NCBI GenBank assembly: GCA_963841045.1 | Contig: CAWJBD010000003.1 | Location: 256,668 to 320,667, forward strand | Direction: 5' to 3' | DNA from: an uncultured beta proteobacterium | GTDB lineage: Bacteria > Pseudomonadota > Gammaproteobacteria > Burkholderiales > Burkholderiaceae_C | DNA: 64,000 nucleotides | Shown: one piece after another, positions 8,787 through 63,306 of the stretch | Layout: each line of letters starts with the position of its first letter | Numbering within the stretch: position 1 is the stretch's first letter | The notes under the pieces: generated by a model | Databases searched by the model: none | Told to the model about the DNA's origin: nothing | What the model saw: the letters and a program-made list of their open reading frames with translations, nothing else | Position numbers and translations under genes: made by a program

Positions 8787-9038
8787 TTAGATAACGTTAT
8801 TAATTTTCGCTTTTGTTACCGCTGTCGCATTGTATTGCTTTTGTCGCTTGTGTCGATTCCCTGGGTGGATTTTCGTTGCTGCAATCAACAACCAAACTTT
8901 TTGCTTCATCGCATCGGTACTTGTGCTCCAAGCAGCTATTTCATCCAGGGTACGAAAGCAACCTTTGCACAGAAGGCTGATGGCATCAATTTGACAAACG
9001 GACGTGCAAGGCGATGGTATCGACATTTTATATGACAA
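8787..9038 (-). CDS. DUF1289 family cysteine-motif protein
   Basis: SPCTSVCQIDAISLLCKGCFRTLDEIAAW is the DUF1289 signature. The ORF maximum starts with TTG at 9038; an ATG at 9026 is the more likely start. Confidence 0.7.
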   Translation of the reverse strand: MSYKMSIPSPCTSVCQIDAISLLCKGCFRTLDEIAAWSTSTDAMKQKVWLLIAATKIHPGNRHKRQKQYNATAVTKAKINNVI

Positions 9039-9041
9039 ATC

Positions 9042-9093
9042 AGGCTATAGCCGGCGTATTGATTGCCTATGTTGCTATTAAATACATAGCAAA
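9042..9093 (+). repeat. Family-1 dispersed palindromic repeat, copy A (intergenic)
   Basis: AGGCTATAGCCGGCGTATTGATTGCCTATGTTGCTATTAAATACATAGCAAA aligns with five other copies in the window. Confidence 0.85.
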
Positions 9094-9121
9094 TGAACAC
9101 TAATGGCTGTTATCATGCTGC

Positions 9122-10585: not shown

Positions 10586-12724
10586 TCAAGCTACGCTTAA
10601 CTTTAGCAACTCTGCCCCTTCAGCCACTTGGTCGCCTGGTAAGTACAGTAGCTCCTCTACCACGCCATCTGACGGCGAGCAAATGGTGTGTTCCATTTTC
10701 ATCGCGTCCATGACCGCCAAGGCTTGGCCTTTGCTGACCTTGTCACCCTTTTGAATAGAGAAAGAAACCACTTTGCCCGGCATGGGTGCAGTCAAACGAC
10801 CGCCCTCTTCATGCACTTCGCCAGCATGTGCCAGCTGGTCGTTTACTATCATTTGTATAGCACCTTTGGCAGTAAATATGCTGGCTACATCCATATTTTG
10901 ATGTATTTTTGCTTGAATACGTTGCCCCGCAAATTGCACATCAATCCCAGTTGCGGTTGGTAAATAATCCAATGCACCACTGATGTCGCCAACTGTTAAA
11001 TGCAATGCACCTCCGTGTAAATATCGCAATTGAGCAGATACGGGTTCACCATAAATTTCAAATTCGAAATTTCGAACACGTTCACCATGCGATTGCCAGC
11101 CATCAACTTTGCCCCAAGGATCAGCCCAATTCGACGCGTTGAGTTTTTCCGTTTTGGCAGCGCCATTCACTTCAGACTGCAAGGTGTTGGCAACTGCCGC
11201 TGCCACCGCCAAAACTTTATCGATGGGCTTCTGGTTGAACAAGGCTTTTTCTTCTCTCGGAATTAAACCAGTATCCAAATTAGCCGTTGCAAACGATTCA
11301 CTGTTCACCACATGGCGCAAAAACTGCACATTGGACTGCAAACCGACAATGTGCGTTTGTGACAAAGCCTTGTCCATGCGCGCCAAGGCTTGTTCGCGCG
11401 TGGCACCATGCACAATCAACTTGGCAATCATGGGGTCGTAGTAAGGCGAAATGGCATCGCCTGCGCGAACACCTGAGTCCACCCGTACAGACACTGCCGA
11501 AATCGAATCGCTGGCGTTTTGAAATGCGACATGCTCTGGCAATGCATATACATTGATATCACCAATGGCAGGCATGAATTGCTTGTCTGGGTTTTCGGCA
11601 CAAATACGCGCTTCAATCGCATGTCCGTTGATTTGCAAATCTTGTTGTTGCAAGGGCAGTTTTTCACCATTGGCTACGCGTAATTGCCACTCCACCAAAT
11701 CCAAACCCGTAATCGCTTCAGTCACTGGATGCTCAACCTGCAAGCGCGTGTTCATCTCCATGAAATAAAAGGCCCACACTTGCCATTGGTGTGCTGCGCT
11801 GCCCGCGGGGTCTAATTTCCCTTGAGGCGGCTCGGCGGGAAATTCTGCATCAACCGTTTCCACAATGAATTCAACCGTGCCAGCGCCCACATAATTCACG
11901 GCACGCGCAGCGGCAATGGCTGTGGCACCCATTTGTTCACGCATGGCTGGCGACAAGCCAGGTGCTGGCGCTTCTTCCAAGACTTTTTGATGGCGGCGTT
12001 GCACCGAACAATCGCGTTCAAACAAATGCACATAGTTGCCGTGCGTGTCGCCAAACACTTGTATCTCAATATGACGCGGACGTTGCACGTATTTTTCGAT
12101 CAACACATTGTCGTCACCAAAACTGTTGATGGCTTCGCGTTTGCATGAAGACAATGCTGCTGCAAAGTCGGCTGCCTTTTCCACAATGCGCATGCCTTTG
12201 CCACCACCGCCCGCGCTGGCTTTGATGAGCACGGGGTAGCCAATCGCATCGGCTTGCATTTGTAAATACGCCGCATCTTGGTTGGCACCGTGGTAACCAG
12301 GCACCAATGGCACGCCGGCTTTTTCCATCAACTGTTTGGACTCTGCTTTCAAACCCATGGCCTGTATGGCGCTGGCTGGTGGGCCAATGAATACCAAACC
12401 GGCTTGTGAGCAACTGTCTGCAAAGGCATCGTTTTCACTCAAAAAGCCGTAGCCAGGGTGAATGGCCTGTGCGCCCGTTTGCTTGGCCGCATCAATGATG
12501 GTTTGCCAACGCAGGTAACTGTCTTTGGGCGCATTGCCTGCATTTGGGTTGCTGCCATCGCCCACATCGCCAATGGCAATGGCTTCGTCGCAAGCCATCA
12601 CATGCTTGGAATGCGCATCGACAGGTGAATAAATAGCGACAGTTTTGATTCCTAAGCGTGCGCAAGTGGCTGCGACTCGGCAAGCAATTTCACCGCGATT
12701 GGCTATCAGTATTTTTTTGAACAT
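10586..12724 (-). CDS. liuD: 3-methylcrotonyl-CoA carboxylase alpha (biotin carboxylase + BCCP) subunit
   Basis: MFKKILIANRGEIACRV, EMNTRLQVEHPVTE, and the C-terminal biotinylation motif AMKME. Carries an in-frame Family-2 repeat insertion just before EMNTRLQVEH. Confidence 0.95.
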   Translation of the reverse strand: MFKKILIANRGEIACRVAATCARLGIKTVAIYSPVDAHSKHVMACDEAIAIGDVGDGSNPNAGNAPKDSYLRWQTIIDAAKQTGAQAIHPGYGFLSENDAFADSCSQAGLVFIGPPASAIQAMGLKAESKQLMEKAGVPLVPGYHGANQDAAYLQMQADAIGYPVLIKASAGGGGKGMRIVEKAADFAAALSSCKREAINSFGDDNVLIEKYVQRPRHIEIQVFGDTHGNYVHLFERDCSVQRRHQKVLEEAPAPGLSPAMREQMGATAIAAARAVNYVGAGTVEFIVETVDAEFPAEPPQGKLDPAGSAAHQWQVWAFYFMEMNTRLQVEHPVTEAITGLDLVEWQLRVANGEKLPLQQQDLQINGHAIEARICAENPDKQFMPAIGDINVYALPEHVAFQNASDSISAVSVRVDSGVRAGDAISPYYDPMIAKLIVHGATREQALARMDKALSQTHIVGLQSNVQFLRHVVNSESFATANLDTGLIPREEKALFNQKPIDKVLAVAAAVANTLQSEVNGAAKTEKLNASNWADPWGKVDGWQSHGERVRNFEFEIYGEPVSAQLRYLHGGALHLTVGDISGALDYLPTATGIDVQFAGQRIQAKIHQNMDVASIFTAKGAIQMIVNDQLAHAGEVHEEGGRLTAPMPGKVVSFSIQKGDKVSKGQALAVMDAMKMEHTICSPSDGVVEELLYLPGDQVAEGAELLKLSVA
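11773..11844 (-). repeat. Family-2 palindromic repeat, in-frame copy inside liuD
   Basis: The coding strand GAATTTCCCGCCGAGCCGCCTCAAGGGAAATTAGACCCCGCGGGCAGCGCAGCACACCAATGGCAAGTGTGGG aligns over about 75 nt with 50266-50342. It contains AATTTCCC-N15-GGGAAATT and CCCGCGGG palindromes. Confidence 0.8.
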
Positions 12725-16870: not shown

Positions 16871-16927
16871 CCTAGTTTGCTATATATTTAATAGCAAACT
16901 AGGCAATTAATACGCCGGCTACAGGCC
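16871..16927 (-). repeat. Family-1 dispersed palindromic repeat, copy B (intergenic, best-preserved hairpin)
   Basis: The reverse complement reads GGCCTGTAGCCGGCGTATTAATTGCCTAGTTTGCTATTAAATATATAGCAAACTAGG, with a 13-bp perfect stem CCTAGTTTGCTAT/ATAGCAAACTAGG. Confidence 0.9.
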
Positions 16928-16946
16928 AATTTCTTATATATTTTTG

Positions 16947-25454: not shown

Positions 25455-26255
25455 TTAATCTTTATCCAAAGCTAGCGCAAGCTCAATGTATTGCTCAACA
25501 GGCACTTCTTGAGCTCTGCGTTGCAGATCGAAATTGCCATGATACGATTTTTCGTCCAACCATTTGCCTAAAGTGTGGCGCATCAATTTGCGGCGTTGAC
25601 TGAAGGCAACACGCACCAACTCACTGAGCATTTCAAGATTTAACTGGGGTGGGTTTAATCTTGGGATCATGCGCACAATCGCGCTGTCGACACGAGGTGG
25701 TGGCGCAAATGAACTGGGCGGAACAAATAACACATTGGCCATGTCATAGCGCCATTGCATCATCACGCTTAAACGACTGTAATCACTGCAATCTGCTTTA
25801 GCAACCATGCGATCTATGACTTCTTTTTGCAGCATGAAGTGTTGGTCTTCTATCACGCCAACAAAATGAAGTAAATGAAAAAGTATTGGCGTCGAAATGT
25901 TGTAAGGTAAATTTCCAACAACACGCAACTTTTGCACATCGGCATCAGCAGTACTTGCGGAAGACTTCAACATGGATTGTCTGATTTCAAGAAAATCAAC
26001 ATTCAAAACATCGGATTGGATGACATCAAGATGCTCATGCAATCGAAGTTGAACAGCTAAATCTCGATCAAGTTCAATGACTGTCAAATGCCCCAAACGC
26101 TCAACCAAAGGTTGCGTCAGCGCTGCCAAACCGGGGCCAATTTCGACCATCATTTGACCCGCTTTGGGTGCAATCAGCCCGACGATGTCATCAATTATGG
26201 ATTTGTCTGTTAGGAAGTGCTGACCGAAACGTTTGCGAGGTATATGGTTATTCAA
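25455..26255 (-). CDS. rsmA: 16S rRNA (adenine1518/1519-N6)-dimethyltransferase
   Basis: 266 aa. [19 protein letters not shown] and [10 protein letters not shown]. Confidence 0.95.
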
Positions 26256-31268: not shown

Positions 31269-31315
31269 GTAAGCAGCCTGCATCGCCTCTATCTCATGAA
31301 TATTTATAAGAAATT

Positions 31316-31367
31316 AGGCTGTATCCGGCGTATTTATTGCCTAGTTTGCTATTAAATATATAGCAAA
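31316..31367 (+). repeat. Family-1 dispersed palindromic repeat, copy C (intergenic)
   Basis: AGGCTGTATCCGGCGTATTTATTGCCTAGTTTGCTATTAAATATATAGCAAA. Confidence 0.85.
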
Positions 31368-31388
31368 TACGTCTAATACTATTTAATC

Positions 31389-45160: not shown

Positions 45161-45200
45161 AAATATGAATCCAGCGAACCAGATTCTATAAATTTTGTGC

Positions 45201-45593
45201 TTAGTAGCTTGAACGGCCACCGCCGCCGTAACCGCCGCCGCCATCGCGACCGCCGCCACCGTAACCGCCGCCGCCTGAACGACCGCCGCCACCGCCGCCG
45301 TAACCACCACCGCCACCGAAGCCACCGCTACGTGGAGGACGTGGCTCCATCGGACGTGCTTCATTGACGACGCAGCTGCGACCGCCTAAATCTTTACCAT
45401 TCATACCAGCAATGGCTGCTTGTGCTTCGGCATCGCTGCCCATTTCCACAAAACCAAAACCTTTTGAACGACCTGTGTCGCGTTCCATCATCACTTTAGC
45501 GCTGGTAACAGCACCAAATTGACTGAAAGATTGCTCTAAATCGCCATCGCGAACCGAGTACGGCAAATTGCCAACGTACAGTTTGTTGCCCAT
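45201..45593 (-). CDS. RNA-binding protein (RRM domain, Gly/Arg/Tyr-rich tail)
   Basis: 130 aa with RNP-2 (LYVGNL), RNP-1 (KGFGFVEM) and a C-terminal GGGGYGGGG repeat. Confidence 0.9.
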   Translation of the reverse strand: MGNKLYVGNLPYSVRDGDLEQSFSQFGAVTSAKVMMERDTGRSKGFGFVEMGSDAEAQAAIAGMNGKDLGGRSCVVNEARPMEPRPPRSGGFGGGGGYGGGGGGRSGGGGYGGGGRDGGGGYGGGGRSSY

Positions 45594-48103: not shown

Positions 48104-48936
48104 GCAACTTGGCCGCGCAACAAAGCGCGCTATTACGCACCTTGTTCAGTTCACCTGTTCAACGGAGTCAAAATGCTACTAATTTCATAGCACTTCAGGC
48201 AATCAATACGCCGCCTAGAGGCCAAAAAGACCATATAAAATTCCAAGAAAGAGGCTTGCAGGTGTATCACGCCAATGCGCAAGTGGCAGCCATTCGCAAC
48301 TTGCAAGCGGCCTATCCAGTGACAGAACAATTGGTTGGTGGCGAAGCGTTTGCTTTGTTGTCGCGCGATTTGTGGCATCAATTTCCACCTAGCAAGGGCG
48401 ATGCCGCTCAATGGGGCGCAGATTTGGCGCAGCTCATCCACAGCATTGCAGAATTAAAGACAGAACCTTACCTGCCCGACGTTGCACGCATTGAATGGGC
48501 CTTGCATATGGCAGCAACAGCAACCGATGCAGAACTGGACGTTAACAGTTTGGCGCTGTTGACCACGCATGCCCCCGATGCCATTACCTTGCAACTGGCA
48601 ACTGGCACACACATTGTGAACAGCAGCTATCCAGCCGCCAGCATCACCACAGCGCATTTGTATGAGAACCCCAACTTTGAAGAATTACAAGCCAAACTCA
48701 GAAAGAGCAGCCCTGAATCTGCCCTCATTTGGCGACAAGGTTTTCGCCCATCTGTGGCCTTATGTACTGCTGCCGATGCCGCATTTATTCAAAATTTATT
48801 AGACGGTGCATCTTTGGCGGCAGCCTTGGATGACACCGAAACGGTTGACTCAACGCCAGCATTTGACTTCAACACGTGGCTCACACAGTCAGCGCAATCT
48901 GGTTTGCTGGTGGGTGCCAAACTGCTTTCAACTTAA
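48100..48936 (+). CDS. bufC: DUF2063-family partner protein (BufC-like), carrying an in-frame Family-1 repeat
   Basis: 278 aa from [26 protein letters not shown]...[13 protein letters not shown] matches the DUF2063 N-terminal pattern. Its ATG overlaps the bufB stop (ATGA). Confidence 0.8.
48171..48223 (-). repeat. Family-1 dispersed palindromic repeat, copy F (in-frame inside bufC)
   Basis: The reverse complement reads GGCCTCTAGGCGGCGTATTGATTGCCTGAAGTGCTATGAAATTAGTAGCATTT. In the gene it is translated as [18 protein letters not shown]. Confidence 0.8.
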
Positions 48937-49481: not shown

Positions 49482-51174
49482 ATGGCGAATTCCGACAACT
49501 TTAATCCTCAACCACCAGCGCAAATGGCCAGCACGATTGTGCTGTGCACGCTCAACGCCAAGTACATCCATGCCTCTTTAGGATTGCGTTATTTGTTCGC
49601 CAACATGGGCGAATTGCAGTCGCAAACGCGCATTTGTGAATTCATGATCAACCGCAAAAGCCCAGAAGAATGGGCGAATGAGTTGATTGCCATGAACCCA
49701 CGCATCATTGGCTTTGGTGTTTACATTTGGAACACGGTGCAAACCTGTGAAGTGGTCAAACTGCTGAAACAACTGCGACCAGACATCACCATCGTTTTAG
49801 GTGGCCCAGAGGTCAGCCATGAAGTACTGGAACAAGAAATCGCGCAACTGAGCGACTACGTCATCACCGGCTGGGGCGACATCAGCTTCCCCAAACTGTG
49901 CCGCGCGGTGTTGCATGGTCCTCAACCCTTGATGAAAGTGATAGCGGGCGAGCAACCGCCGCTGGACGACATCCAACTGCCCTACGCCTACTACACCGAC
50001 GAAGATTTGGCGCACCGCTTGCTGTATGTGGAAGCCTCGCGCGGTTGCCCGTTCAAGTGCGAGTTTTGCATCAGCTCGCTGGACAAAACCGCATGGGCAT
50101 TTGATTTGGATTTATTTCTGGGTGAACTGCAAACTCTGTACAACCGTGGCGCGCGCAATTTCAAATTTGTGGACCGCACTTTCAATTTAAAAATCGACGC
50201 ATCGGTGCGCATCATGCAGTTCTTTTTAGACAAAATTGACGCCGAGAAGCATGGGAGAGGATTTGAATTCTCCGACGAGCCGCCTCTAGGAGAATTAGCC
50301 CCCTCGGGGGGCAGCGCAGTACGCGAAGCGACAAGCGTGGGGGAACTTTTCCTGCATTTTGAAGTGATTCCAGACCATTTGCCAGACCGACTCGAAAGAA
50401 ATGATTGCCAAATTCCCACCCGGCTCTTTGCAATTTGAAGTGGGCATTCAAACCTTTAATGTCGATGTGCAAAAGCGCATTTCGCGCAAGCAAGACAATG
50501 ACAAAACCGTTGCCAATTTGAAATGGTTGCTGAACGAATCCAACGCGCATTTGCACACCGATTTGATTTTTGGCCTGCCAGGCGAAAGCTTGCAAAGTTT
50601 CGCCGATGGTTTTGACAAACTGTATGCGCTTGAGCCGCATGAAATTCAACTCGGCATTTTGAAACGCCTGCGCGGCACGCCCATTGCCAAGCACACCGAA
50701 ACACACGGCATGGTGTACGACCCGCTGCCGCCCTACCAAGTGCGGCAAACCGCGGCAGTGACTGCGGCTGACATGACCCGCTTTGCCCACATGGCACGCT
50801 ATTGGGATTTGGTCGCCAACTCTGGCCGCTTCACCGCCACCATGCCTTTGCTGATGCTGGGTGATTCACCATTCGGCGCGTTCATGGCTTTCAGCGATTG
50901 GCTGTGGAATGACTCCATCCACATCAAAGGCAAAACCAGCGGCATCACGCCCGAGCATTTGGTCAATGCCCTGCATGCATATTTGATTGGGCCACGCGGT
51001 ATGGATGTGGATGTGGTGACGCAAGCCCTGCTCACCGACTACGTCGCCAGCGGTGCGCGGGCCAGGCCTGATGTGCTGCGTCATTTAATGCCAAAGTTCC
51101 CAGCACCCATCCCCAAAGCCAAGAAGCAACACAGCCAGCGCCAAGCGCAGCATTTGTCGCTGACTCCGTCTTAA
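49482..51174 (+). pseudogene. B12-binding-domain radical SAM protein (DUF4080-type) with a +1 frameshift and an in-frame Family-2 repeat
   Basis: Part 1 ends ...LFLHFEVIPDHLPDRLE then RNDCQ... and a stop. Part 2 begins (K)EMIAKFPPGSLQFEVGIQTFNVDVQKRISR. Contains the rSAM cluster motif EASRGCPFKCEFC. The junction is at about 50391-50400. The span of 1693 nt is 3n+1. Confidence 0.8.
50266..50342 (+). repeat. Family-2 palindromic repeat, in-frame copy inside the radical SAM gene
   Basis: AATTCTCC-GACGAGCCGCCTCTA-GGAGAATT, then a GCCCCCTCGGGGGGC hairpin, then AGCGCAGTACGCGAAGCGACAAGCGTGGG. Translated as EFSDEPPLGELAPSGGSAVREATSVG, compared with EFPAEPPQGKLDPAGSAAHQWQVW in liuD. Confidence 0.8.
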
Positions 51175-54278: not shown

Positions 54279-55103
54279 TTAAATGCCCATGCTTTGCAAA
54301 GTCACCACGCCTTTGGGCGTGCGCAGGGTGACGGTGAGGTTTGGCTCACCCTCTGAAACAGTGACGCCACTCAAACCAATAGCCGTGTAAGCAGCTTGCA
54401 GTTTGTCGCTACTTAGGGATGTGACAGCCACGCTTTGCAGCGACACGCCAGAGCGCGGCAAGGTGTTGCGCGGGTGCAAGCGCAGGGGTTCAGCGTCGGC
54501 ATTTTTGCCCCACTGAATCAGACTGGGCAAAGTGCCGTTGAACAGGCGCTGGCCATCATCGCGCACGGTGATTTTCCATTCCAAACGGCCTTTGCGCGTG
54601 TGGCGGCTGGCTTCGACTGCGGTGCCGCGGTCAATGCCTTGCAACTTTAATGCGCTCTTTGCGGCTTGGATGTCTGCCGTCTGTGCCACAAAGTGCACCA
54701 AGCGCGGCTCTACTGCCACTGCCTTTTGCAGCGCTGCATCGTCCATATCAAACCAACGCGCAGAATTTATACGTTTTTGGCCTGTAGCCGGCGTATTAAT
54801 TGCCTGAGGTGCTATTGAATTAGTAGCATCAGGTTTAATGGCAATGATTTCAAAATACGCCAATGGATACTGTGGTGTGGCGATTTTGAACAAGCAATTG
54901 TGGGTGCCAAACTGCTTGTGCTCGCCACCTTCATTGGGTGTGATGCCCAAAGTGGCTTCGCACCACGCAACACCCTGCTCTAGCGTTTGCGCTACGACAA
55001 CGATGTGGTCTATTTGAGTCTTAACTTCTGTGCTGGTCGCTTCGGTTGGTGCTGAAGTAGCAAACGCACGCGCTTCGCGGTTGGACCGCACGATCAGCGT
55101 CAT
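54279..55103 (-). CDS. VOC-family (glyoxalase-like domain) protein carrying an in-frame Family-1 repeat
   Basis: 274 aa. IDHIVVVAQTLEQGVAWCEATLGITPNEGGEH..FGTHN.LF...YFEIIAI. Confidence 0.7.
   Translation of the reverse strand: MTLIVRSNREARAFATSAPTEATSTEVKTQIDHIVVVAQTLEQGVAWCEATLGITPNEGGEHKQFGTHNCLFKIATPQYPLAYFEIIAIKPDATNSIAPQAINTPATGQKRINSARWFDMDDAALQKAVAVEPRLVHFVAQTADIQAAKSALKLQGIDRGTAVEASRHTRKGRLEWKITVRDDGQRLFNGTLPSLIQWGKNADAEPLRLHPRNTLPRSGVSLQSVAVTSLSSDKLQAAYTAIGLSGVTVSEGEPNLTVTLRTPKGVVTLQSMGI
54780..54835 (+). repeat. Family-1 dispersed palindromic repeat, copy E (in-frame inside the VOC gene, antisense to the element)
   Basis: GGCCTGTAGCCGGCGTATTAATTGCCTGAGGTGCTATTGAATTAGTAGCATCAGG. 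Translated on the minus strand as DATNSIAPQAINTPATGQ. Confidence 0.85.
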
Positions 55104-59020: not shown

Positions 59021-60526
59021 ATGCTCACCAAAAACAGCACCCTTTCACTGTCTGAACAATTGCGCGACCGCTTTGCACAGCGCATTCAAAGCCGTTTGCT
59101 CTCAGCTGGCGCGCGCTTGCCTTCGGTGCGGCAATGTGCGCAGCAGCAAGGTGTGAGCCCGTCAACGGTGGTGGCTGCTTATGACCAATTGCTGGCGCTG
59201 GGTTTGGTAGAGTCGCGCCGCAACAGGGGCTTCTATGTACGAGAATTTACCAATTTTTATACAAAAAATCAGCCTGTATCCGGCGTATATATTGCCTATG
59301 ATGCTATCAATAATGTAGCAAATAATGCAAATCATCTTGCGACAAATGCTCCAAGCGTATCGGCTACACAAACCCCTGCACCCATGCGGGCACCTACTCC
59401 CGCCCCCATCAATGCCGCCATGCTGATTCGTGGCATGTTCCGCCAAGCAGGACCCAAGCCGCAACCTGGCATGGGGGTGTTTCCACCAGAGTGGTTGGAC
59501 AACCCGTTTTTAAGCGCCGCTGTGCGCAAAGTCACCACACCAGCCGCGCTGAAACAGTTTTCATTGGAATATGGCGACCCAATGGGTGATGCGAATTTAA
59601 GACAATCGCTGTCCAACAAGCTCGCACAAATGAACATCAGCGCAGCACCCAGCCAAATCATCAGCACAGTTGGCGCTACGCATGCGCTGGATGTGGTGAG
59701 CCGCACCTTGCTCAGAGCGGGTGACGCGGTGATGGTGGAAGAGCCCGGCTGGGCGGTGGAATTTGCGCGCTTGCAAGCGCTGGGCATGCAGATATTGCCC
59801 GTGCCACGCCGTGCCGATGGACCCGATTTGGACGTGATGGCGAAGTACTGCGACATTCACAAACCCAAACTGATGGTGAGCGTGAGCGTGCTGCACAACC
59901 CCACGGGCTACATGCTGTCGCCCCACAGCGCGCACCGCATGTTGCAGCTGGCGAATGAACACGACTTTCACATCATGGAGGACGACAGCTACAGCCACAT
60001 TGCGCCCGACCATGCCACGCGCCTGTGCGCTTTGGATGGTTTGCAACGCACGATCTATGTGAGTGGCTTTGCCAAAATACTCGCCCCCAATTGGCGCGTG
60101 GGCTATATGGCTGCACCCGAAGATTTGATAGAACGATTGCTGGACACCAAATTGCTTGCCACCTTGACCACGCCAGCTCTCTTAGAAAAAGCCATTAGCC
60201 TGTGCATAGACCAAGGCCAACTGCGCCGCCACGCCACCAGCATACGTGCCAAACTGGCAGCGGCACGTGGCAGAACGGTTAAGTTGGCACTTGCTCACGG
60301 TTGTACATTCGCATCCGAACCAGCAGGTTTATTCGGCTGGGTAGACACTGGCGTGGATACCGACCAATTGGCGCAGCGCATGCTTGACCACGGATACTTG
60401 CTCGCCCCCGGTGCCCTCTTCCACGCCAGCCGCCAACCCAGCACACTGATGCGCATCAACTTTGCGACCACGCAGAATGCGGAATTTTGGAAAGTGTTTG
60501 CGCGGGAAGTGGAAGCGATGAAGTAA
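59021..60526 (+). CDS. MocR-subfamily GntR regulator (wHTH + PLP aminotransferase-like domain) with an in-frame Family-1 repeat in the linker
   Basis: 501 aa from MLTKNSTLSLSEQLRDRF. LPSVRQCAQQQGVSPSTVVAAYDQL (HTH) and SGFAKILAPNWRVGY (PLP lysine context). Confidence 0.85.
   Translation: MLTKNSTLSLSEQLRDRFAQRIQSRLLSAGARLPSVRQCAQQQGVSPSTVVAAYDQLLALGLVESRRNRGFYVREFTNFYTKNQPVSGVYIAYDAINNVANNANHLATNAPSVSATQTPAPMRAPTPAPINAAMLIRGMFRQAGPKPQPGMGVFPPEWLDNPFLSAAVRKVTTPAALKQFSLEYGDPMGDANLRQSLSNKLAQMNISAAPSQIISTVGATHALDVVSRTLLRAGDAVMVEEPGWAVEFARLQALGMQILPVPRRADGPDLDVMAKYCDIHKPKLMVSVSVLHNPTGYMLSPHSAHRMLQLANEHDFHIMEDDSYSHIAPDHATRLCALDGLQRTIYVSGFAKILAPNWRVGYMAAPEDLIERLLDTKLLATLTTPALLEKAISLCIDQGQLRRHATSIRAKLAAARGRTVKLALAHGCTFASEPAGLFGWVDTGVDTDQLAQRMLDHGYLLAPGALFHASRQPSTLMRINFATTQNAEFWKVFAREVEAMK
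59271..59322 (+). repeat. Family-1 dispersed palindromic repeat, copy D (in-frame, sense orientation, MocR linker)
   Basis: AGCCTGTATCCGGCGTATATATTGCCTATGATGCTATCAATAATGTAGCAAA. Translated as QPVSGVYIAYDAINNVAN. Confidence 0.8.
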
Positions 60527-63229: not shown

Positions 63230-63306
63230 TGGTGCGGCTGGCAGGAATTGAACCCACGACCCTCTGGTTCGTAGCCAGATACTCTATCCAACTGAGCTAC
63301 AGCCGC
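63230..63306 (-). tRNA. tRNA-Arg (anticodon ACG)
   Basis: The reverse complement is GCGGCTGTAGCTCAGTTGGATAGAGTATCTGGCTACGAACCAGAGGGTCGTGGGTTCAATTCCTGCCAGCCGCACCA. This is 77 nt and folds as a cloverleaf: acceptor GCGGCTG/CAGCCGC, anticodon loop CTACGAA, T-loop GGTTCAATTCC, encoded CCA. Confidence 0.95.

Follow-up and report, generated by a model that had tools for sequence, protein, structure and literature searches.

Two unrelated genes of a Burkholderiales bacterium very probably carry translated copies of a widespread and apparently undescribed palindromic repeat

Among the small repeats described from bacteria, mycobacterial interspersed repetitive units (MIRUs) are direct tandem units of 40-100 bp that lie between the genes of operons and have an open frame whose start and stop overlap the flanking genes. 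Repetitive extragenic palindromic (REP) sequences, with BIMEs and the RAYT-mobilised REPINs, are GC-rich imperfect palindromes that are mostly extragenic and present in high copy number. Palindromic repeats that lie in frame within genes are represented by the Rickettsia palindromic elements (RPE; Ogata et al. [quoted passage not shown] The subject of this report is a repeat found in a 64,000-nt stretch of DNA (the window) from an uncultured bacterium of the Burkholderiales (contig CAWJBD010000003.1, positions 256,668 to 320,667 of the forward strand). Two segments of the window, one inside the gene for the alpha subunit of 3-methylcrotonyl-CoA carboxylase (MCCase; liuD), an enzyme of leucine catabolism, and the other inside a gene for a B12-binding radical S-adenosylmethionine (SAM) protein, are very probably resident, translated copies of an interspersed repeat of ~80 nt and 62-80% G+C that is widespread in the Burkholderiales. 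In these two genes the element contributes 21-27 extra residues. The host genes, the two copies (a and b) and their parts are located in the window as follows.

10586-12724, minus strand: host gene 1, MCCase alpha (liuD), 712 aa, from Pfam and PDB matches
11771-11844, minus strand: repeat element copy a, in frame in MCCase alpha, encoding about EFPAEPPQGKLDPAGSAAHQWQVWA; decayed
11814-11844, minus strand: hairpin 1 of copy a, with arms AATTTCCC (11814-11821) and GGGAAATT (11837-11844), given in plus-strand coordinates, and 15 nt between them
11822-11836, minus strand: conserved apical segment GCCGAGCCGCCTCAA of hairpin 1 of copy a, from sequence
11802-11809, minus strand: hairpin-2 remnant of copy a, CCCGCGGG against the canonical CCCCCTCGGGGGG
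49482-51174, plus strand: host gene 2, B12-binding radical SAM / DUF4080, from Pfam; two open reading frames (ORFs) in the window
50265-50344, plus strand: repeat element copy b, structurally intact, in frame in the radical SAM gene, encoding EFSDEPPLGELAPSGGSAVREATSVGE
50266-50273 and 50289-50296, plus strand: hairpin-1 arms of copy b, AATTCTCC/GGAGAATT, 8 bp
50299-50311, plus strand: hairpin 2 of copy b, from sequence
50312-50317, plus strand: CAGCGC of copy b, from sequence
50318-50333, plus strand: stem B with its loop in copy b, from sequence; AAGCGTGGGGG ends at 50343

Host gene 1 has the Pfam domains Biotin_carb_N, CPSase_L_D2 (ATP-grasp), Biotin_carb_C, BT_MCC_alpha and Biotin_lipoyl, and it matches Pseudomonas MCC alpha (PDB 3u9s, E=4.5e-173) and human MCCC1 (8j4z, E=5.2e-170). 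The insert comprises about residues 290-317 of the protein, directly before FYFMEMNTRLQVEH, and HMMER alignments are gapped at this point, between residues 285/289 of 3u9s_A and 327/331 of 8j4z_E. Twenty-nine residues stand in place of an 8-residue loop, QQANGAMQ, for a net gain of 21, and the flanks are intact, with GAGTVEFIVE before the insert and FYFMEMNTR after it. An initial annotation of the window, made from the letters alone, had proposed an in-frame insert in the ATP-grasp domain just before a conserved motif; the open ORF, the intact Pfam domains and the gap in the PDB alignments bear this out. In an AlphaFold2 model of only moderate overall confidence (mean pLDDT 66.5), strands 280-290 and 317-325 are joined by residues 292-316 as coil with a pLDDT below 50, and the insert is predicted to extend a beta-hairpin turn of the ATP-grasp domain as a disordered loop. 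The turn at which the PDB alignments are gapped lies between two predicted strands and has low pLDDT, and the insert may be a surface loop. A promoter/terminator scan of the insert found neither on the sense strand. (A separate 10-residue insertion, DVGDGSNPNA, is present at residues 53-62 of the same protein, window 12539-12568 on the minus strand, and has low pLDDT in the model.)

One extra G, which follows CTC at ~50393 (50385-50400), divides host gene 2 in the window into two ORFs that overlap, 49482-50438 and 50401-51174. At the split the window reads CGACTCGAAAGAAATG, and its 96%-identical orthologue P0241, an unbroken 549-aa protein with an identical insert, has DRLKEMIAKF in one frame; the split is either a recent pseudogenisation or a sequencing error.

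On its sense (minus) strand, from 11844 to 11771, copy a reads GAATTTCCC-GCCGAGCCGCCTCAA-GGGAAATT-AG-ACCCCGCGGG-CAGCGC...GTGTGGGCC, and the sequence downstream of the 3' hairpin-1 arm GGGAAATT is CCCCGCGGG. The composite palindrome that the initial annotation had described, two arms with 15 nt between them, is present in this sequence, and its hairpin is retained in the DNA fold centroid; for copy b the DNA fold z-score is -2.16. Copies a and b agree in 58 of the 72 bases that align (80.6%; 75% if all 77 columns of the alignment are counted), and a repeat search finds a common ungapped core of 44 nt with 82% identity. Their Smith-Waterman score is 60, and the best score elsewhere in the window, or with any of 30 shuffles of copy a scanned against the entire window on both strands, is at most 30. 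The match of about 75% to 50266-50342 given in the initial annotation thus stands well above shuffled sequence, and the reading frame, which the annotation had given as the same, is common to the two copies over the first two thirds (EFPAEPPQGKLDPAGSA versus EFSDEPPLGELAPSGGSA). Between the copies the hairpin-1 arms differ by two compensatory pair changes, TTTCCC/GGGAAA versus TTCTCC/GGAGAA. The window as a whole has a G+C content of 47.6%. Neither nhmmer nor a covariance model with its filters off detects a third copy in the whole 64 kb; one candidate, at 26082-26202 (E=5), was rejected as a chance match to the SAM-binding motif of a 16S rRNA dimethyltransferase gene.

The family to which the two segments belong emerges from searches of other genomes. 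A DNA scan of one genome per species with the pattern GGGGGCAGCGC-N15-AGCGTGGGG returned at least 120 stretches, and the matches listed include Ramlibacter, Pigmentiphaga, Casimicrobiaceae, Rhodocyclaceae, Hydrogenophaga, Rivibacter, Rhodoferax, Variovorax, Ideonella, Methylibium, Piscinibacter, Polaromonas and Caldimonas, with one copy each in Paraburkholderia and Acidovorax replicons. An nhmmer profile of 100 copies, 95 of which come from the genome scan of other genera and which include both window copies, gives E=1.3e-15 for copy b and E=1.1e-8 for copy a; in the 1.05 Mb of loci examined it detects 176 copies. A profile of the insert peptide matches 300 proteins with a translated element at E<=10. 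The 120 of these that are listed have 33-102 aa. Most are short ORFs labelled 'hypothetical', many of them holding a tandem pair; a few others are pieces of real genes or their ends, and the sources include Polaromonas, Hydrogenophaga and soil metagenomes. The short 'hypothetical' matches imply that the element is usually intergenic and that its open frame is translated by gene callers. (It should be noted that this listing holds proteins of up to 102 aa only, though MCCases score 46-51 bits locally, and therefore gives no estimate of the in-gene fraction.) At the DNA level most copies indeed lie between genes, where they stand alone or form direct tandem arrays (period 80-86 nt), and they occur in all four arrangements relative to the neighbouring genes (30/27/26/18). 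In 171 kb of the window and its low-GC relatives, family copies are only intragenic, in the MCCase and radical SAM genes; as a general rule for low-GC relatives this was discarded, since a metagenome scan found intergenic copies of the low-GC subfamily. The further copies for which the initial annotation had suggested a search thus exist in abundance in other genera; the family is not local to the window or its genome and spans the Burkholderiales. No Rfam 15 family is matched by the element, either in the window at gathering scores or in eight loci with canonical and tandem copies at E<=1, and the literature, searched by topic and by sequence strings, yielded no description of the repeat; the family is apparently undescribed.

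An alignment of 100 copies and its RNAalifold consensus give the element three hairpins, with conserved loops and covarying stems. Read 5' to 3' on the strand that both host genes use as sense, hairpin 1 combines a conserved apical segment, GCC-G(G/A)GCCGCC(C/T)C-AA, with a stem of 8-9 bp that is self-complementary but hypervariable. There are 67 distinct 5' arms in 126 copies, most of which form 8-9 uninterrupted pairs with their own 3' arm and only 2-5 with the arm of another copy. The apical segment itself holds a covarying pair, G-C in 83 copies and A-U in 24; both window copies have 8-bp hairpin-1 arms and the A-U (A..T) variant of this pair. Hairpin 2, CCCCC-TC-GGGGGG, is invariant. Hairpin 3, CAGCGC-variable stem-AAGCGTGGGGGC, has an invariant outer helix, CAGCGC/GCGTG, with one G-U pair, and a variable inner stem of 4-5 bp with a G-N-A loop, which also covaries (C-G in 55 and G-C in 44 copies at one pair; G-C in 75 and A-U in 27 at another). 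The 3' end of the element is GGGGGC. In 112 copies, counted in an alignment fitted to the model, 97.2% of cells are paired versus 85.2% in shuffles, and 218 cells are changed on both sides versus 59.7; the covariation score is 0.341 versus 0.124, none of 500 shuffles reaches 0.341, and in a control in which the 3' partner is slid by 1-3 columns the score does not exceed 0.046. Departures from pairing in the variable stems are similar in number for G-U (about 17) and A-C (about 13), so that action of the palindrome on either strand, or as DNA, is conceivable.

All six frames of the element are mostly open as a result of its G+C content, and differences of frame between copies stem from the 15/16-nt length of hairpin 3 and from 1-2-nt differences in hairpin 1. 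A family of small protein-coding genes was accordingly rejected as an identity for the repeat, as no frame is conserved (APSGGSA versus PLGGQRS, GPPQG versus GRPKQG). Also rejected was a host-derived 5' arm of hairpin 1, formed as an inverted target duplication, for the AATT(T/C)(C/T)CC arm is common to the MCCase, radical SAM and same-subfamily intergenic copies. Some copies show further variation. In L112 (5135-5235), P0157, P0204, P0237 and P0388 there is an extra ~80-90 nt in or beside hairpin 2, translated as ..EGLEPAAPSVLEHAWTGDRGEASREPRPARPR.., which may be a second small element nested in the repeat. A subfamily with TCAG(T/G)CCGGC arms (among others L046, L053, L093, L104 and L122) has a conserved ..TCAG 5' of the element and, 3-4 nt beyond the 3' GGGGGC, a conserved GTCAT. 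Together these make a mini-ORF, ATG...TGA, of ~27 codons on the reverse strand (for example MLAPTLVASLRRCPPRGRSPAWDGPAPD), and they are perhaps just the boundaries of flanking genes.

Of the two window copies, copy b scores 84.6 bits with the covariance model and forms every helix. Copy a scores 55.7 bits; its hairpin 2 is shortened and flagged as partly broken, hairpin 3 is broken in its inner stem, and CAGCGC is retained. The hairpins 2 and 3 of the family are thus complete in copy b and partial in copy a, a decayed member. Relative to a 96%-identical orthologue in L003, copy a has deletions of 3, 1 and 2 nt, and because of these its tail reads HQWQVW, a locally shifted reading of the canonical HAVASVG with the overall frame kept. 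Copy a is therefore decaying: it has lost hairpins 2 and 3, and its internal frameshift is compensated. The loss of structure with the ORF still open suggests that it is now the frame that is constrained, and no longer the structure of the element.

Residence in genes is not peculiar to the two window copies. In GC-rich DNA the mere presence of an open frame across the element is uninformative (143 spurious spans), and in-gene copies were instead recognised by an open frame with coding-type G+C at third codon positions on both flanks, followed by Pfam. Seven copies were selected in this way, all of them in sense orientation and in genes that Pfam confirmed, with domains that flank or enclose the insert: DinB, a metallo-beta-lactamase-fold protein, GspE, RecQ (where the copy lies in the zinc-binding domain), an Ndh-like flavoprotein/oxidoreductase, GltB and DUF2126. 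The metagenome scan for the low-GC subfamily gave 13 contigs, two of which have the element inside a fatty-acid hydroxylase gene (FA_hydroxylase), and an exhaustive profile search of 1.84 billion protein cluster representatives gave 260 at E<=0.001, among them PriA, an EamA transporter, an oxoprolinase and a P-type ATPase whose actuator domain holds a tandem pair. Altogether at least 15 host protein families have an in-frame copy. Profile membership, the abundance of intergenic copies and these further hosts uphold the view of the initial annotation that this is RPE-like DNA, a repeat lying in frame in unrelated genes and leaving the ORF intact. In all 10 host genes detected at the DNA level the element is in sense orientation, which does not result from stop codons because antisense frames are open in 81-91% of copies; the frame that is used differs between sites (APSGGSA versus PLGGQRS). 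Retention in sense only may reflect tolerance of the Gly/Pro/Ser/Ala-rich sense peptides or a directional mechanism. (In one further case, the 1334-nt contig L141 with a coverage of 0.76, the repeat is found in a single ORF together with a Glyoxalase_3 domain and a GCV_T C-terminal barrel, probably through misassembly or as a fusion artefact.)

Insight into how the insert came to be where it is has come from its distribution among orthologues. The element is present at the MCCase site in 15 of 120 orthologues. The closest of these, P0001 (96% identity), has it; fifteen orthologues at 92-94% identity do not, and have QQANGAMQ or QQPNGDMN in its place. The insert then recurs in P0017 (87%), in P0018 and P0020-22 (74-76%) and in a basal clade (69-71%). 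When the insert columns are left out of the tree, the carriers come out as polyphyletic, with P0018, P0020, P0021 and P0022 each singly nested among non-carriers, while the control indel DVGDGSNPNA is monophyletic (18 of 120 orthologues, confined to the window clade and P0017). Within the species-level cluster of the window, three loop alleles, one inserted and two uninserted, are intermixed on the tree, consistent with a recombining polymorphism. At the radical SAM gene, one site, between FFLD(K/R).. and LF(V/L)HFEVIPD, has the element in 26 of 121 sequences, and the carriers include several subtypes, a 1.3-copy variant and truncated forms; apart from P0241, the closest relatives (P0242, P0243 and P0257) have no insert there. 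P0241 and P0001 are probably on the same contig (88,411 bp), and the contig of P0257, at 354,111 bp, has the same size as that of the genome contig without the MCCase insert. The initial annotation had expected a lineage-specific insert; what is seen among MCCase orthologues is patchy and polyphyletic, and likewise at the radical SAM site. It had also reasoned that carriage by distant orthologues would make the segment ancestral: such carriers do exist, at 69-71% identity, but ancestry is not implied, since close orthologues are without the insert.

The MCCase alleles themselves argue for exchange between lineages. The element is 90-95% identical between alleles of genes that are only 71-73% identical, and it has the same junctions; in particular, seven alleles in four separate clades share the junctions IVE-T-(E/A)QF ... 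SVGA-(Y/F)YF, which replace QQPNGDMNF. Flanks were compared at the DNA level, the protein flanks being too conserved to reveal recombination tracts. For the sister pair P0018 (with insert) and P0064 (without), mismatch is 17.2% in the 200-nt flanks versus 7.8% further away (identity 82.8% versus 92.2%; Fisher p=2e-7), and for the pair P0022 (with) and P0078 (without) it is 16.0% versus 8.1% (p=1e-5); non-sister pairs show the opposite trend, with the 200-nt flanks more conserved. The flanks in the P0018 and P0022 lineages are foreign, and in these lineages the inserted allele therefore came by homologous recombination. The RPE-like reading of the initial annotation holds, but the data do not show direct transposition into liuD, since in these two lineages the allele with the insert was brought in on foreign flanking DNA. 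Most of the patchiness would be explained by recombination through flanks that are extremely conserved. A simpler history, an 80-nt insertion after ATGCAG with an 11-nt deletion that restored the frame, was set aside, as the junction in the window is that of P0017, P0018 and P0022 with a 6-nt GGTTGA indel.

Set beside the known systems, the repeat is a new case of the small palindromic repeats that are able to live in frame in genes. It resembles RPE in being an interspersed palindromic repeat that lies both between genes and in frame in many unrelated housekeeping genes, adding a short peptide with the ORF kept, in loops (here predicted) and with in-gene copies that are old and decaying. The comparison, which is one of behaviour and description, also brings out differences: the hosts are free-living Burkholderiales and not Rickettsia; the unit is ~80 nt rather than about 100-150 nt, with three hairpins, conserved loops, hypervariable stems and frequent direct tandem arrays; the reading frame varies by site; and copies within genes, which recombination spreads, are polymorphic between strains that are nearly identical. 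With REP, BIME and REPIN sequences the repeat shares GC-rich imperfect palindromes, a mostly extragenic habitat, high copy number, the lack of terminal inverted repeats or target duplications, and placement within operons and between convergent genes in either orientation. REPs, however, measure 20-40 nt, have a stem that is conserved and a GTAG-type head at the 5' end, and form inverted doublets; the Burkholderiales repeat has neither conserved stem nor inverted doublets, but is ~80 nt with three hairpins, variable stems, conserved loops and direct arrays. Like the MITE-type repeats (ERIC, BOX, QMITE1 and those of Anabaena) it is small and non-autonomous and fuses occasionally with host ORFs, but it lacks terminal inverted repeats and shows no target-site duplication at the MCCase junctions; to our knowledge it has no parent insertion sequence. 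A likeness to MIRUs is seen in the one operon case examined, a tandem pair between rsmH and ftsL in the dcw operon of L001 (10001-10240; contig of 61% G+C), which makes up an ORF of 79 aa. This ORF overlaps the rsmH stop with its start (ATGA) and the ftsL start with its stop, an arrangement like the translational coupling described for MIRUs. The taxon differs, and we know of no MIRUs that are three-hairpin units or inserts in enzyme domains.

These observations can be joined in an account that is very probable in its main lines. An old inserted MCCase allele, seen with identical junctions in lineages whose genes are 71-73% identical, moves between lineages by homologous recombination, as it has done in the two lineages with foreign flanks and may have done in the rest. 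In-gene copies are retained only where their length keeps the frame and the site tolerates the insert; in its sense frames the element encodes a Gly/Pro/Ser/Ala-rich peptide, in MCCase a loop predicted to be disordered at the tip of a beta-hairpin. New copies might arise through a trans-acting enzyme that, as in REP/RAYT or IS200/IS605, recognises a folded strand by its conserved loops, which is suggested because the single-stranded loops are conserved and the stems are free to vary. Several points weigh against the account as a whole. The flanks in the window lineage itself are native (2.5% mismatch versus 5.3% further away), and foreign flanks are found only in two other lineages. Several subtypes of the element and a 1.3-copy variant occur at one host site; a single ancestral allele passed on by recombination accounts for this only if further gene conversion or repeated insertion is added. 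Neither terminal inverted repeats (the 5' terminus is variable, and GCCCCCACGCTT, the reverse complement of the 3' GGGGGC end, has no match at the 5' end) nor a target-site duplication (MCCase junctions GAAAC-TGAA/CAATTT...GGGGGCC/TATTAC) nor a mobilising enzyme has been found, and a crude scan for HUH and NPVxAGL motifs detected no RAYT/HUH protein in ~1.2 Mb of 8-kb loci around elements; 'mobile' is therefore a term drawn from copy number and distribution. Finally, the covariation counts depend on an alignment fitted to the model, and the overall confidence of the AlphaFold2 model is only moderate.

The patchiness could instead reflect repeated, independent, site-directed insertion at hot spots in the MCCase and radical SAM genes rather than the spread of old alleles by recombination, a reading that is doubtful. 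It would account for the different subtypes at the same site (first-half frames QFSAGPPQGKL, AAPGRPKQGT and SGRSAGPPQARP), for the truncated and 1.3-copy variants at the same site in both host genes and for the native flanks of the window lineage, and the uninserted loop (..GAMQF / ..DMNF) resembles the usual 5' junction of the element in tandem arrays (..GAMQF), which hints at microhomology. Seven alleles in four clades with identical, non-trivial junctions are difficult to reconcile with such events, as are the foreign flanks of two of these lineages, and no common target is evident between the MCCase and radical SAM sites; the subtypes and the ..GAMQF resemblance nevertheless leave room for repeated insertion or for gene conversion from other copies. 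A quite unlikely alternative is that the element is not selfish but mainly a functional structured RNA or single-stranded DNA motif, such as a signal for processing or stability or a site where a protein binds or translation pauses, and that in-gene copies are kept for that function. The conserved loops and covarying stems across the whole order would fit, as would the invariant G-U pair of hairpin 3 (an A-C mismatch on the opposite strand), the sense orientation in 10 of 10 host genes despite open antisense frames, the compensatory arm changes between the window copies and the ORF of the L001 tandem pair, which overlaps rsmH and ftsL inside the dcw operon. However, intergenic copies take all four arrangements, the near equality of G-U and A-C departures in the variable stems favours neither strand clearly, there are tandem arrays and truncated and 1.3-copy variants, the window MCCase copy is without hairpins 2 and 3 in an intact ORF, many close orthologues are without the element, and Rfam gives no match even at E<=1.

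That the extra residues are an ordinary lineage-specific or ancestral MCCase loop, with a resemblance to the radical SAM insert by chance or convergence, is extremely improbable. Loop-length variation at this hairpin turn is common among biotin carboxylases, and the flanking motifs are intact, both of which would suit such a loop. This explanation was rejected on the pairwise score of the two copies, far above that of shuffles, the profile and covariance-model matches built from copies in other genera, the occurrence of the same DNA hundreds of times outside genes, and the polyphyly of the insert as against the monophyly of a true indel in the same protein. A bolder extension of the preferred reading, distinctly doubtful as it stands, is that the family is order-wide structured mobile DNA of a class so far undescribed, with conserved loops that dedicated machinery reads on a folded single strand, and that its in-gene copies behave as endonuclease-free 'homing' cassettes. 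Such cassettes would be sense, disordered, translated loops that pass by short-patch gene conversion between diverged orthologues at a few permissive, highly conserved sites.

The window has other features as well. A second, unrelated and AT-richer repeat of about 60-70 nt, apparently intergenic, is present in six window copies with the consensus ..GGCCTGTAGCCGGCGTATTnATTGCCT..TGCTATnAAAT..ATAGCA and a terminal TGCTAT/ATAGCA hairpin; these and two further features are as follows.

9029-9094: second AT-richer repeat
16876-16944, minus strand: second AT-richer repeat
31299-31368: second AT-richer repeat
48173-48228, minus strand: second AT-richer repeat
54764-54831: second AT-richer repeat
59260-59323: second AT-richer repeat
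45198-45331: run of triplet repeats, GCC/GCCGCC type, period 9-18 nt; on the minus strand it probably codes for a Gly-rich tail
63233-63306, minus strand: tRNA gene (65.6 bits); Rfam matches nothing else in the window

Rickettsia is the best-known setting of in-frame palindromic repeats, which have been linked there to reductive genome evolution in intracellular life; here they are found in free-living Burkholderiales with large genomes. A single structured element extends across families of the order and resides in core enzymes that include RecQ, PriA, DinB, GltB, GspE and MCCase, and gene callers make hundreds of spurious 'hypothetical proteins' from its open frame. At least some of the in-gene cassettes spread by homologous recombination and not by transposition. 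If the 'homing' cassettes are real, they would be a recurrent source of new protein loops in free-living bacteria, and the compensatory arm changes in coding copies would mean continuing selection on nucleic-acid structure inside genes. In the MCCase gene, inserted and uninserted alleles of the same enzyme coexist at 93-96% identity, a natural experiment through which the gain of a repeat-derived loop is open to study.

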